A stretch of 64,000 bases of DNA from Escherichia phage UPEC01: the sequence record MW233709, one strand, 5' to 3'. How positions within the stretch are numbered: the stretch's first letter is position 1; the number at the start of each line of letters is the position of its first letter. The notes below the pieces were generated by a model. That model was not told where the DNA came from, did not search any database, and saw only the letters and a program-made list of their open reading frames with translations. The position numbers and the translations under genes were made by a program. Shown piece by piece: positions 4,440 to 62,887 of this stretch.

Positions 4440-4534
4440 GTTTTGGAGTTGAGTTTGCATTGCTTTGTATTTTCGCGGCAATCGCAGGTGTGATTGTTGG
4501 TATGTTTATTGGTAATAAGATAGATAAAGACTAG
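4436..4534 (+). CDS. small hydrophobic peptide (32 aa)
   Basis: ATGA overlap with gene 52 stop; followed by terminator hairpin. Confidence 0.25.
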   Translation: MSFGVEFALLCIFAAIAGVIVGMFIGNKIDKD

Positions 4535-4557
4535 GACCCTTCGGGGTCCTTTTTTAT
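4533..4557 (+). terminator. intrinsic terminator
   Basis: GGACCC-TTCG-GGGTCC hairpin plus T-run. Confidence 0.7.
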
Positions 4558-4568
4558 TTTAAAAAAGT

Positions 4569-4598
4569 AGTGTACAAACCCCTTGTCTTAGGACATAA
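4569..4598 (+). promoter_or_regulatory. early promoter cassette
   Basis: AAAAAGTAGTGTACA ... CATAAT, preceded by terminator hairpin; conserved block 4599-4619. Confidence 0.6.
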
Positions 4599-4648
4599 TG
4601 ATTCCATACTGAGTTACACAATGAATCACAAAAACTTTGGAGAATAAA

Positions 4649-4864
4649 ATGTTTACTGCACAACAGAATGAAGGTCAAGAATACATCAACGCTAAATTCA
4701 AATCTAACAAAGAAGCTTGCTATTATTACTTTGACATGTTCAAACTGGCAAACTCTAAAGAAGAACGTAAACAAGCAATTGATGTGATTGTTTCTACTTC
4801 CCATATGAAACGTACTGTGGTACAATCATATGCATCAAATTATATGAAATCTATTAAGGGATAA
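4649..4864 (+). CDS. hypothetical protein (71 aa)
   Basis: ATG after GGAGAATAAAATG; track start 4637 is TTG. Confidence 0.45.
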   Translation: MFTAQQNEGQEYINAKFKSNKEACYYYFDMFKLANSKEERKQAIDVIVSTSHMKRTVVQSYASNYMKSIKG

Positions 4865-21532: not shown

Positions 21533-21557
21533 GGGGACCTTCGGGTCCCTTTTTTAT
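21533..21557 (+). terminator. intrinsic terminator after gene 32
   Basis: GGGACC-TTCG-GGTCCC hairpin plus TTTTTTATTTT. Confidence 0.75.
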
Positions 21558-21569
21558 TTTCAAAAAGTA

Positions 21570-21599
21570 GTGTACAAGTCCCTTGAGCTAAGGCATAAT
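21570..21599 (+). promoter_or_regulatory. early promoter cassette
   Basis: AAAAAGTAGTGTACA ... CATAAT right after gene 32 terminator. Confidence 0.6.
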
Positions 21600-21637
21600 G
21601 ATTCCATCAACTACTGATAACAACTGAGGAAATAAAA

Positions 21638-22980: not shown

Positions 22981-23010
22981 GTGTACAACCAAATGGGGCT
23001 ATGACATAAT
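22981..23010 (+). promoter_or_regulatory. early promoter cassette
   Basis: AAAAAGTAGTGTACA ... CATAAT; conserved block variant 23013-23030. Confidence 0.6.
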
Positions 23011-23051
23011 GGTCCCATACTGAGTTAACAACTAAAACCCTGGAGAATAAA

Positions 23052-23291
23052 ATGAAATTACAACGTGAGAGCATCAAAGATTCAGAAGTTAAAGGCAAAT
23101 GGTACTTCACAATCCAGGGTAACAATCCAGAAGCTCTGGAAAAAGCTGAAGAAACTTTATGCGCGATGGGTTGGAAAGATGAGTGCGATGGTTGCCCTCT
23201 TTATGAAGATGGTAGCTCATCTGGTTTCTGGATTCACCACTCTGACGTTGACCAATTTAAAGCTGACTGGAAAGTTGCTAAGAAAGCGTGA
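23052..23291 (+). CDS. hypothetical protein (79 aa)
   Basis: ORF with GGAGAATAAAATG RBS after early promoter 22981-23010. Confidence 0.5.
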   Translation: MKLQRESIKDSEVKGKWYFTIQGNNPEALEKAEETLCAMGWKDECDGCPLYEDGSSSGFWIHHSDVDQFKADWKVAKKA

Positions 23292-36940: not shown

Positions 36941-37288
36941 ATGACCAAACAACATGGATTAAATATGGAATTACCAATTAAAGCAGTAGGTGAATATATT
37001 ATTTTGGTTTCTGAGCCAAAGCAAGCTGGTGATGAAGAAACTACGGCATCAGGTATCGTTATCGGAAAACTCCATCAGGGTGAAATCCCAGAGATGTGTG
37101 AAGTATTTTCGATTGGTCCGGATGTTCCTGAAGGTTTCTGTGAAGTGGGTGATTTGACTCCTCTTCCGGTTGGCAAGATTGCAAACGTTCCACATCCTCT
37201 GGTTGCTCTGGGACTTAAGCAGGCTAAAGAAGTTAAGCAGAAATTTGTGACCTGTCATTATAAAGCTGTTCCTTGTCTTTATAAGTAA
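36941..37288 (+). CDS. 31: co-chaperonin gp31 (GroES-like)
   Basis: [63 protein letters not shown] match T4 gp31; start could be 36965. Confidence 0.9.
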
Positions 37289-37297
37289 AATTAGCGT

Positions 37298-37305
37298 TAT
37301 AAATA
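37298..37305 (+). promoter_or_regulatory. late promoter candidate upstream of rIII-like gene
   Basis: TATAAATA on + strand. Confidence 0.4.
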
Positions 37306-37445
37306 ATAATATGGATTGGCTGCCGGACCCGTTAGTTAACCGGAGAATCCTAAACGGTGGACTACAACTGAGAGACTTGCCGAAAGGAAGTGAAATTCAG
37401 AAGAACGTGTCCACCAAATATTCACCTCGTATTGAGGCTTCTAAA

Positions 37446-37700
37446 ATGTCTTTAAATAAACAATTACAACACGCTCTTGAACTGCAACGCACTGCATGGA
37501 ATAACGGTCACGAAAACTACGGCGCATCTATTGATGTTGAAGCCGAAGCACTGGAAATTCTGCAGTATTTCAAACATCTTAACCCGATTCAAACCGACCT
37601 TCGCGCAGTGCTCGAAGCAAAAGATGAACTGAAATTTGCTAAGCCGCTGGCATCTGCTGCGCGTAAAGCTGTTCGTCATTTTGTCGTAACCCTGAAGTAA
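37446..37700 (+). CDS. rIII: rIII-like lysis inhibition accessory protein (84 aa)
   Basis: ATG with GAGG RBS; 84 aa right after gene 31, as T4 rIII (82 aa); assignment positional. Confidence 0.4.
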   Translation: MSLNKQLQHALELQRTAWNNGHENYGASIDVEAEALEILQYFKHLNPIQTDLRAVLEAKDELKFAKPLASAARKAVRHFVVTLK

Positions 37701-38097
37701 GCTGTAGGTGATTCGCTACCTTAGTGCGGCTAGAAAATCGAGGAGCCGCCGAATTATCTGATTAATGATTTGCGAATCATTATAGTTTTAGACCCCGATA
37801 ATTTTGTGGTGTACCTCTTGAATGTTATTCTTATAGCGGCAAGTGCATGCTACCCCGAGGTGATGGCCAATCGGGAGTACGCCTCAAGGCCTATATATCC
37901 ATCAGTATATATCTTATCCTCGAGAAATCGAACCCGGAACCTTTAAGCTAACGGTGTGCAACAGATAAGAGCTATAAGGTATGATGACGAGGTTTATGGT
38001 TATCCTGTCGTTAAATATCCGAAACCTAATGTTCCCTTCGAGGGCTTGCGCAGGCAATGCCAATAAGTCCTGCATTCTATTTTAAAGAGAATTTAAT

Positions 38098-38259
38098 ATG
38101 GCTAAGAAAGAAGTTAAAGTTGTTGATGGCTCCTCCAAACGCGATGGTTACAAGCGTGCGTCCAACAAGCGAATCAATCAGGTAACTGATAAACTTCAGG
38201 CTCGTGCTCGTGCGGTATTGCGTGCCGATGCAGCTTGCTTTGGTAAGCCGAAAGCATAA
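38098..38259 (+). CDS. small highly basic protein (53 aa)
   Basis: ATG ORF MAKKEVKVVDGSSKRDGYKRASNKR...; followed by strong terminator 38265-38290. Confidence 0.4.
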   Translation: MAKKEVKVVDGSSKRDGYKRASNKRINQVTDKLQARARAVLRADAACFGKPKA

Positions 38260-38264
38260 GTTCA

Positions 38265-38290
38265 GGGACTCTTCGGAGTCCCTTTTTTAT
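38265..38290 (+). terminator. intrinsic terminator
   Basis: GGGACTC-TTCG-GAGTCCC plus TTTTTTATTTT. Confidence 0.75.
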
Positions 38291-38304
38291 TTTCCATAAA
38301 GGGG

Positions 38305-38333
38305 TTTACAACAGGGTTGGTCCAGTGCATAAT
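38305..38333 (+). promoter_or_regulatory. early promoter cassette
   Basis: GTTTACA ... CATAAT after terminator; conserved block 38334-38354. Confidence 0.6.
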
Positions 38334-38374
38334 GATTCCATACTGAGTTACACAATAAAACACTGGAGAATAAA

Positions 38375-38743
38375 ATGAAAATCAATCTTAACTCATACAT
38401 CAAAGGTAAAGACCACGACGGTTACAAAGCCATTGAAACTAAAGAAATGCAATGGCACTTGTATAAAGAACAATTTGAATTCGTTTCTTGCATGACTCCA
38501 GAAGGTCCTTCTGATGACTTCTCCTGGAAAATTATGGTAACAAACTTTTTTACTGGTGATACCTACGAACTGAAAACTTTGATTCTTGGTAAGATTCGTT
38601 GTAAGACCTATGAAGATGAAGAAACTGGTTATTCTGAAGATGTTACATGGTATCAAAATGGTCGCACCACTGCTGATGATTTGATTGAAAAAATGAAAGC
38701 TAAGGGTGAATTAAATTTAGATAATTGGATTAAAGTCGCATAA
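38375..38743 (+). CDS. hypothetical protein (122 aa)
   Basis: GGAGAATAAAATG RBS after early promoter 38305-38333. Confidence 0.5.
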   Translation: MKINLNSYIKGKDHDGYKAIETKEMQWHLYKEQFEFVSCMTPEGPSDDFSWKIMVTNFFTGDTYELKTLILGKIRCKTYEDEETGYSEDVTWYQNGRTTADDLIEKMKAKGELNLDNWIKVA

Positions 38744-62534: not shown

Positions 62535-62564
62535 GTTTACAACCAGATTAAGATAAGACATAAT
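62535..62564 (+). promoter_or_regulatory. early promoter cassette
   Basis: GTTTACA ... CATAAT; conserved block 62565-62582. Confidence 0.6.
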
Positions 62565-62605
62565 GATTCCATACTGAGTTAACAAACAAAACCTGGAGTT
62601 TAAAA

Positions 62606-62887
62606 ATGAACAAAGCAACTTTCCTTCTGAACACCTTTAAAAAATTGGAAATTGAAGTTATTGCATTGGTCAACAAATACCCAAATGGCGTTAATGGTAA
62701 TGCTCTGAACAAACTAGTTAAAAAATATGAAAACTTAGCATATGACACTGATTTCTGGTGGAATGGTAATTATTCTACTCACACTAAAGATAAAAATGGT
62801 AACTGGTTGAAACTTCAAGAAAACAATGTTAACTTCAGAGACCTCATCAAGCGCCGGGTAGAAGTTCATTTAAATGGTATGGTATGA
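62606..62887 (+). CDS. hypothetical protein (93 aa)
   Basis: ORF after early promoter 62535-62564, flanked by bidirectional terminator; occupies T4 segD position between genes 23 and 24. Confidence 0.5.
   Translation: MNKATFLLNTFKKLEIEVIALVNKYPNGVNGNALNKLVKKYENLAYDTDFWWNGNYSTHTKDKNGNWLKLQENNVNFRDLIKRRVEVHLNGMV

Follow-up and report, generated by a model that had tools for sequence, protein, structure and literature searches.

What does Escherichia phage UPEC01 keep in the stretch of about 400 nucleotides (nt) that separates its rIII gene from the next gene, 30.9? In the 64,000-nt piece of sequence record MW233709 analysed here (the window), this gap runs from position 37701 to 38097, and an initial annotation had read it as a possible structured leader, as a small RNA or as what remains of a deleted gene. 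The first two proposals are supported in kind but missed the mosaic of modules of which the RNA is made, the mimic of the ToxI antitoxin that it includes and the copy that T4 itself carries. Very probably, the gap is an RNA whose structure is functional and which includes a homologue of ToxI; in type III toxin-antitoxin, or abortive-infection, systems (ToxIN), this antitoxin RNA keeps the endoribonuclease ToxN inactive. At least six modules of the + strand RNA fold independently of each other. They are given here with window coordinates, strand and supporting evidence:

37706..37739, +: module m1, a single ToxI-like unit (pseudo-ToxI), AGGTGATTCGCTACCTTAGTGCGGCTAGAAAATC; blastn matches to plasmid ToxI arrays
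37740..37817, +: module m2, a long irregular hairpin of 78 nt; covariation in alignment A2, minimum free energy (MFE) z = -3.15
37830..37978, +: module B, a closed four-way-junction RNA domain of 145 nt; RNAalifold, covariation and covariance model R1
37984..38029, +: module m4, an H-type pseudoknot; covariation in alignment A3, in pseudoknot notation
38031..38048, +: module m5a, hairpin GUUCCCUUCGAGGGCUUG with conserved flanks; stem covariation
38050..38073, +: module m5b, hairpin GCAGG...CCUGC with a conserved 14-nt loop, CAAUGCCAAUAAGU; stem change with the loop kept
38074..38092, +: weak hairpin AUUCU...AGAAU, overlapping the Shine-Dalgarno (SD) region of 30.9

An RNA under selection for its structure

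The UPEC01 stretch belongs to a Gaprivervirus of the T4 family (99.9% to Escherichia virus TH41, 97% to Shigella phage SP18), and its gap matches 995 of 50,697 phage records. Two parts of it, block A (37701-37826) and block C (37981-38097), are 87-91% identical in T4, where they are directly joined to give a 244-nt rIII-30.9 spacer. Block B, which lies between them (37827-37980), is absent from T4 and from phage VR7, the latter having an unrelated 53-nt module, m3, at this place; it is 85-96% identical in T4-like phages of Klebsiella, Enterobacter, Serratia and Erwinia. For these pairs of genomes, identity at the third codon positions of gp31, rIII, 30.9 and 30.8 amounts to only 44-67%, and the constraint on the modules, at 85-96% identity, is therefore much stronger than that on synonymous sites. 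Comparison of the aligned genomes thus shows the modules to be under strong purifying selection.

What is selected is visible in the pattern of the changes. Compensatory covariation in B, m2 and m4 lies far above that of shuffled and slid controls, and G·U cells outnumber A·C cells by 45:2, 32:4 and 36:10 in these three modules, respectively. This excess of G·U over A·C indicates that the selected form is the + sense RNA, and neither the DNA nor the antisense strand. A remnant of a deleted gene, as the initial annotation had suggested, is refuted by the same two observations, i.e., by compensatory base-pair changes and by conservation above that of the neighbours' synonymous sites. The folding energy of the whole gap speaks against a structured RNA: the MFE z-score is -0.78, and stability is not significant on either strand. 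As this energy is unremarkable, the case for the gap RNA rests on comparison, not on thermodynamics.

A single ToxI-like unit

Module m1 consists of a 5-bp hairpin with a bulged U and of the A-rich 3' tail GAAAAUC, the tail also found in genuine ToxI repeats; the reported cleavage motif of the ToxN toxin is GAAAU (PMC10853763). When compared by blastn with 72,556 plasmids, a 40-nt m1 query retrieved ToxI tandem arrays in 7 plasmids (E = 3e-3), with 13 copies in Pectobacterium atrosepticum pPA21A and 4 in an E. coli IncX4 plasmid. Both of these arrays lie immediately upstream of genes annotated as 'type III toxin-antitoxin system ToxN/AbiQ family toxin', and m1 is identical to the ToxI unit of the IncX4 plasmid at 31 of 37 positions. 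Reciprocally, a genuine plasmid ToxI dimer searched against phages finds the 'pseudo-ToxI' feature of phage phiTE and the exact m1 site of the Gapriverviruses. By these alignments, m1 is homologous to ToxI.

ToxI arrays upstream of four further ToxN homologues were collected for comparison with the m1 variants of other phages (L numbers are our labels for individual records). The m1 of Klebsiella phages is closest (29/30) to the ToxI unit AGGTGATTTGCTACCTTTAAGTGCAGCTAGAAATTC of the 6-kb E. coli plasmid L085, a unit that we take to be identical to canonical Pectobacterium ToxI, while that of Enterobacter phage CIP9 best matches the ToxI of an Enterobacter hormaechei plasmid (29/31). In L041, the best match is a Serratia plasmid ToxI (27/30), and a G>A and a C>U change fall on opposite arms of the hairpin as drawn here. 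That m1 variants track plasmid ToxI variants argues for selection for mimicry or for repeated exchange with plasmids, and not for an inert relic.

The context of m1 differs from that of a ToxIN locus. Genuine arrays have 2.9-13 copies, whereas m1 is single-copy in the window and occurs once per locus in those loci that were read by eye; it is followed not by a terminator and toxN/abiQ but by m2 and the other modules and then 30.9. As a ToxI-like unit in a non-coding region of a lytic phage genome, m1 is a candidate phage pseudo-ToxI.

ToxI-like units were also seen in Vibrio phages JSF10 and JSF12, Klebsiella phages pzk-kv7 and KP2025, 'phage Eos', Salmonella phage SE131 and Yersinia phage TG1, the genome size of these records, about 90-150 kb, being quite unlike the ~170 kb of T4-like phages. 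Mimicry of RNA antitoxins may therefore extend well beyond phiTE, so far its only case.

Module B, a four-way junction

Stem P1 of module B (CUUAUAGC/GCUAUAAG) encloses P2-P7 and opens into a perfect four-way junction leading to P2/P3, P4 and P5/P6/P7. P1 is rebuilt from differing flanking sequence in each phage, and the interior holds the invariant unpaired stretches AAGUGCAU, CUCAAG, GCUAACGG and GCAACAGAU, as well as a GNRA-type loop on P6. The 44 pairs are formed in 99% of cells of the alignment and 16 of them have changed on both sides, a level reached by 0 of 500 shuffles (slid controls, 0-2). Covariance model R1 recovers B in the window with 173 bits (E = 5e-39) and a next best score of 13.9 bits, i.e., as a single copy. 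In a Klebsiella phage, B is 96% identical with flanking third codon positions at 44-63%.

B is present in about 400 of the 50,697 phage records, while none of 185,579 bacterial and archaeal genomes contains its signature, GCTAACGGTGNGCAACAGAT. Among 20 matches to this signature in IMG/VR, 19 are T4-like contigs with B at the same locus, the exception, L050, lying in a coding region; in metagenomes, R1 confirmed 14 of 15 signature matches as typical B and gave no hit for the remaining one, L072. Judged by size alone, nearly all of these metagenome contigs are T4-like.

Hairpin P6, UCGA-GAAA-UCGA (37921-37932), displays the GAAAU that is the reported ToxN cleavage motif (PMC10853763); the loop reads GUAA or AUAA in other phages, and the occurrence may be coincidental. 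A likeness of B to the region of pseudoknot PK1 in E. coli transfer-messenger RNA (tmRNA; AAG-UGCAUGC...CGAGG) and to the loops of the hairpin ribozyme was considered, and was dropped for want of support from Rfam or ARAGORN.

The pseudoknot and the hairpins around it

Module m4 is an H-type pseudoknot with two helices supported by covariation, in which a bulged stem of 8-9 bp carries a loop that base-pairs with sequence lying 22 nt further downstream. The stem, S1, joins 37984-37992 to 38004-38011; S2 joins the loop, 37993-38001, to 38023-38029, and loop 3 is A-rich (UUAAAUAUCCGA). Loop and tail change together from phage to phage, for instance UUAGUAGUU/AACUACUAA in L059, UUGUGAG/CUCACAA in L021 and GUUGGUU/AACCAAC in L030. 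The covariation score of 0.327 compares with 0.14 in shuffled alignments (0/500) and at most 0.138 in slid controls, and cognate loop/tail pairs form better duplexes than non-cognate ones (permutation p < 1e-4). The pseudoknot ends 68 nt before the AUG of 30.9.

Two palindromes pointed out in the initial annotation belong to module m2. The first, TAATGATT/AATCATTA (37763-37770 / 37775-37782), is real and forms the apical helix of the module, UAAUGAUU-UGCG-AAUCAUUA (37763-37782), which stands above a helix a, GAGG/CCUC, and a helix b of 12 bp; the second, GGTGTACC, lies in the 3' strand of m2. In alignment A2, 99% of cells are paired and 7 of the 24 pairs have changed on both sides (0/500 shuffles; slid controls 0-1).

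Downstream of m4, m5a occurs once in the window and as one copy per locus in 40 of 61 loci, with a stem that covaries (CCC/GGG, GCC/GGC, CCUC/GAGG). The stem of m5b is replaced by AACUGG/CCAGUU in L028 and L029, the loop being unchanged, and longer variants stand at the same place in other genera; no complementarity was found between its conserved loop and other sequences of the window. A hairpin over the SD region was found in 12 of 12 leader types folded, with a stability ranging from -0.7 kcal/mol in UPEC01 to -6.3 in others.

No Rfam family and no gene in the gap

The gap has no match among Rfam covariance models or in the tRNA/tmRNA scan. Rfam 15 at gathering thresholds gave no matches over the whole window; at E <= 10, nothing relevant appeared over 37250-38400, nor did anything at E <= 1 in eight diverse homologous loci, and ARAGORN reported no tRNA or tmRNA gene in the window. 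B, m2, m4 and m5 hence match no described RNA family, and module B and the m4 pseudoknot are well-supported candidates for new ones. Since their boundaries and base pairs are defined, both can be tested directly as new RNA structures.

That the gap has no plausible open reading frame (ORF), as first claimed, is borne out by the absence of any conserved reading frame among relatives. The largest ORFs that touch it encode 58 amino acids (aa; 37770-37946, +, with a TTG start) and 53 aa (37914-38075, -), next to several of 34-36 aa. Each of the gap ORFs straddles a module junction that varies even among close relatives (VR7, T4), and homologues differ by 1- and 2-nt indels within modules that break all reading frames; no gap ORF is therefore a conserved gene. 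None of the related phages carries an intact gene here; they have, instead, other combinations of the same RNA modules. Many GenBank records place 'hypothetical proteins' of 30-40 aa on gap modules, some of them as a '1,4-alpha-glucan branching enzyme'. These small ORFs are probably annotation artefacts, in which case several genome annotations, that of the glucan branching enzyme included, put spurious genes on the gap RNA.

Modules exchanged as cassettes

The order of the modules differs between phages as follows:

T4: m1-m2-m4-m5
VR7: m1-m2-m3-m4-m5
UPEC01 stretch: m1-m2-B-m4-m5
L059: B-m4-m5
Enterobacter phage CIP9 (L058): m4-m1-B-m5
L022: only m5a-m4, a small hairpin and the SD hairpin

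Phage genera have thus swapped, lost or reordered modules as cassettes. Every 30.9-bearing locus examined has m4 and m5a, and in L038, which has neither 30.9 nor any of the gap RNA, a terminator comes right after rIII. It is therefore 30.9, and not rIII, that the RNA accompanies. Neither the whole gap nor m4+m5 has a blastn match in 5,426 complete E. coli genomes.

A further copy exists in the phi92-like phages (Justusliebigvirus), which are unrelated to T4. Their tRNA cluster holds a near-T4-identical m1-m2-m4-m5 between tRNA-Gly and tRNA-Gln:

Escherichia phage PD06 (L040), 2292-2636: phi92-type copy
phi92, NC_023693 (L077), 890-1236: phi92-type copy
KKE7M (L078): empty site

The fragment is annotated as 'rIII', and related isolates such as KKE7M are without the insert. 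In this copy, the ATG of 30.9 is fused to the last 27 codons of rIII; the insert of 331 bp is circularly permuted with respect to T4 and lies between the two copies of a 13-bp direct repeat, TTTATTGGAGATT, of which the first bases of tRNA-Gln are a part. It looks like a circularised T4 fragment that was integrated by microhomology. The idea, prompted by this junction, that m1 derives from a tRNA was rejected, a 13-nt identity being expected by chance, on a rough estimate, between two genomes of ~150 kb.

Transcription of the locus and the gp30.9 protein

The genes of the + strand follow each other in the order cd, 31.2, 31.1, 31, rIII, gap, gp30.9 homologue, terminator, early promoter and 30.8. 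The features that border the gap are:

37298..37305, +: late promoter motif of T4 type, TATAAATA, upstream of rIII; 12 motif matches in the window versus 4.6 expected
37446..37700, +: rIII, lysis-inhibition accessory protein of 84 aa; phrog_1457, E = 4.7e-42; annotated as rIII in MN01 and VR7
38098..38259, +: gp30.9 homologue of 53 aa; phrog_1427; annotated as gp30.9 in SP18 and VR7
38264..38293, +: intrinsic terminator, 8-bp stem (38264-38283) and T-run, z = -4.09; ends the rIII-30.9 transcript
38305..38333: early promoter, between the terminator and 30.8

A scan for promoters and terminators found neither inside the gap, and the degenerate early promoter that the initial annotation had placed there is unsupported. 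The strong terminator that it had seen behind a basic 53-aa ORF is real, as is the ORF itself (38098-38259), which encodes a homologue of T4 gp30.9. Between 37298 and 38305, promoter-like sites amount to weak 9/12 matches only, all outside the gap, and the late motif at 37298-37305 is the nearest upstream start for a transcript spanning rIII, gap and 30.9. With this promoter upstream, a terminator after 30.9 and no such site in between, the three would share transcripts; from the layout of promoters and terminators only, we infer that the gap is the intercistronic part of the rIII-30.9 mRNA.

The gp30.9 family comprises 11 clusters among 1.84 billion representatives, and gp30.9 has no Pfam, NCBIfam or PDB match. 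AlphaFold2 predicts a basic N-terminal tail and one long helix (residues 17-48; predicted local distance difference test, pLDDT, 72). A basic and helical protein as modelled here would be compatible with RNA binding; this is only suggestive and not informative.

Some other observations concern the surroundings of the gap. The spacer of ~157 nt between gene 31 and rIII (37289-37445) contains, besides the late promoter, a hairpin CACCUC-guau-UGAGG, which would sequester the SD site of rIII. In the SP18 annotation, rIII starts at an upstream ATG (37311, giving 129 aa), while T4, VR7 and MN01 use the 84-aa form; the longer version is probably an over-extension. A search for internal repeats of the window found that the gap itself is not repeated and that only the unit following 30.9 recurs. 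This unit of terminator, early promoter and SD (38265-38380) is a dispersed repeat with 75-91% identity, whose other copies lie near 377-424, 4534-4651, 21534-21607, 23005-23057 and 62559-62610. In SP18 (L001, 2553-2903), an additional gene, gp30.6A, is inserted at precisely this cassette, separating 30.9 from 30.8; the UPEC01 stretch is without it.

Possible functions of the leader

We lean, by a small measure, towards a mechanism in which m1 would serve as an RNA decoy for ToxN within a structured 30.9 leader. Following a published model, host toxI synthesis would stop during infection, toxI would decay and ToxN would be freed (PMC10853763). The phage transcript would then supply m1 as a ToxI look-alike that binds ToxN and keeps it inactive, an effect of pseudo-ToxI that was demonstrated experimentally for phage phiTE (PMC3475682), and the m1 of each phage lineage would resemble the ToxI variants on plasmids of comparable hosts. 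The always-present core, i.e., m4, m5a and the SD hairpin, would most likely act in cis on the translation or stability of the 30.9 message, while the optional modules m2, B and, in VR7, m3 would most likely bind other proteins or ligands.

Several facts weigh against this mechanism. T4's own m1 is the most diverged copy (25/37), and in JS98-type and Karamvirus loci m1 is missing with the rest of the leader kept. In wild-type phiTE, 1.5 pseudo-ToxI units do not prevent abortive infection, and escape requires their expansion to 4.5-5.5 (PMC3475682), whereas m1 is a single unit; copy number thus argues against a decoy. Moreover, T4 overcame E. coli toxIN only once it had been evolved experimentally, and the means by which T4-like phages block toxIN is a protein, TifA (PMC9391042; PMC10853763). 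Beyond m1, the stretch m2-B-m4-m5 of the window and a 2.5-kb composite of module variants gave chance-level matches only among the 72,556 plasmids, and a search of representative genomes anchored on ToxN found no relatives; as m2, B, m4 and m5 are without relatives in plasmids, E. coli genomes and Rfam, the decoy idea is supported for m1 only. In addition, with an SD hairpin of just -0.7 kcal/mol, cis control of 30.9 is weakly supported in UPEC01.

A rival reading is a purely cis-acting leader, i.e., a translational or stability operator for 30.9, possibly bound by gp30.9 in the manner of the autoregulation of T4 gene 32, in which m1 would be an inert relic of an earlier recombination with a toxIN plasmid. 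We consider this possible but rather unlikely. It would account for the constant position of the RNA immediately before 30.9, for its absence wherever 30.9 is missing, and for an invariant core made of pseudoknot, hairpin and SD hairpin; gp30.9 is small, basic and helical, like many RNA-binding proteins, and one ToxI unit may not suffice to neutralise ToxN (PMC3475682). An inert relic should, however, decay like synonymous sites (44-67% identical), and the hairpin of m1 is kept through changes on both arms and tracks ToxI variants by lineage. The variable order of the modules, with m4 before m1 and B in L058 but after B in L059 and UPEC01, would be odd for one operator; B is also far larger than any known phage operator, and the SD hairpin of UPEC01 is very weak. 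Another reading is an array of trans-acting RNAs, in which several or all of the modules are released, or act as independent decoys or sponges, every one aimed at its own RNA-binding protein of a defence or of the host. The layout is that of beads on a string, every module being self-closing and the P1 of B rebuilt in each context; cassettes are exchanged at fixed junctions, m1 is a demonstrable antitoxin mimic, and a T4-type copy was captured into the tRNA, i.e., stable-RNA, operon of the phi92-like phages. Such an array is nonetheless doubtful, in that no module besides m1 resembles a known antitoxin or defence RNA, the gap has no internal promoters or terminators and no sign of processing, and the phi92 copy, being nearly identical to that of T4, seems to have arisen recently, through accidental recombination at a 13-bp microhomology.

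Module B alone could be the aptamer of a riboswitch, or a small ribozyme, and adjust the expression of what lies downstream in response to a metabolite or signal. A junction of several helices, invariant unpaired nucleotides and a GNRA-type loop are typical of aptamers and ribozymes, and the sequence is conserved to an extreme degree across genera; yet no riboswitch or ribozyme model of Rfam matches, even at E = 10, and B is optional, being absent in T4 and VR7. It also stands ~120 nt from the start of 30.9, with m4 and m5 between and at a variable relative position, no alternative pairing of an expression platform was seen, and no direct coupling to a terminator or to a helix sequestering the SD of 30.9 was found, which leaves this role highly improbable. 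Hardly any credence can be given to a decayed gene, to a spacer that evolves neutrally or to an element that acts as DNA, for example an origin or a site of recombination. It is true that no record annotates a feature here and that the folding energy of the whole region is ordinary, but conservation exceeds that of synonymous sites, compensatory changes lie far above controls, indels break every reading frame, and the G·U asymmetry designates single-stranded + sense RNA, not duplex DNA, as the selected form. A decoy carried within the 30.9 leader remains the explanation that we prefer. A more far-reaching proposal, which we regard as improbable, is that the rIII-30.9 region is an RNA-based anti-defence island, with m1, m4, B, m2 and m3 each neutralising a different RNA-binding immunity or host factor. 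If this were true, an arms race with the plasmids of the hosts would drive the gain, loss and retuning of modules, and B would be the ligand or decoy of a defence protein not yet recognised as RNA-controlled.

Relation to known systems

The exchange of gap modules recalls the promoter-early stem-loop (PeSL) cassettes, mobile regulatory cassettes of T4-type phages that Arbiol, Comeau and Krisch reportedly described in 2010. These are also short conserved non-coding units shuffled between T4-type genomes by recombination, and the terminator/early-promoter unit behind 30.9 resembles them. Unlike PeSL cassettes, the gap modules are single-copy and promoterless, and are constrained as RNA structure, not as promoter DNA.

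The closest parallel to m4 is the pseudoknot in the leader of T4 gene 32 (PMC3014915), which is likewise of H-type, located tens of nt upstream of a start codon and conserved through covariation. The two share no sequence similarity, and m4 is followed by structured hairpins, not by an unstructured A/U-rich tract. A review of post-transcriptional control in T4 calls the gene 32 pseudoknot the only such viral example, and mentions neither rIII nor 30.9 nor the rIII-30.9 leader (PMC3014915). T4 is among the best-studied viruses, yet its own rIII-30.9 spacer of 244 nt is unannotated, with no feature in the RefSeq record. A study of T4-like Serratia phages facing ToxIN does not mention a ToxI-like unit in T4-family phages, and the papers on TifA do not mention rIII, 30.9 or a ToxI-like sequence in T4 (PMC9391042; PMC10853763). 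No earlier description of the gap RNA was found in the literature searched, whose coverage was incomplete, so that an earlier account may exist.

With the ToxI of type III ToxIN systems, m1 shares the bulged-U hairpin, the A-rich tail GAAAAUC and 31/37 identity; it differs from ToxI in having no tandem array and no terminator and toxN downstream, in a loop that is 2 nt shorter, and in residing in a lytic phage. Closer still in setting is the pseudo-ToxI of phiTE (Blower et al. 2012, PMC3475682), like m1 a phage-encoded, intergenic, non-coding copy of the ToxI repeat. That copy belongs to a non-T4-type phage, has 1.5 tandem units and works only after expansion, whereas m1 is exactly one unit, set among structured modules inside the rIII-30.9 mRNA and conserved across several Tevenvirinae genera in lineage-specific variants. 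Within the T4 family itself, the counterpart is TifA (T4 gp61.4; PMC9391042; PMC10853763), also a counter-defence against ToxN. TifA is a protein that binds ToxN and RNA, while m1 would imitate the antitoxin as an RNA. Should m1 indeed act as a decoy for ToxN, it would provide T4-family phages with a second, RNA-based route against ToxIN beside TifA, and its lineage-matched variants would be a record of the co-evolution of phages and plasmids.

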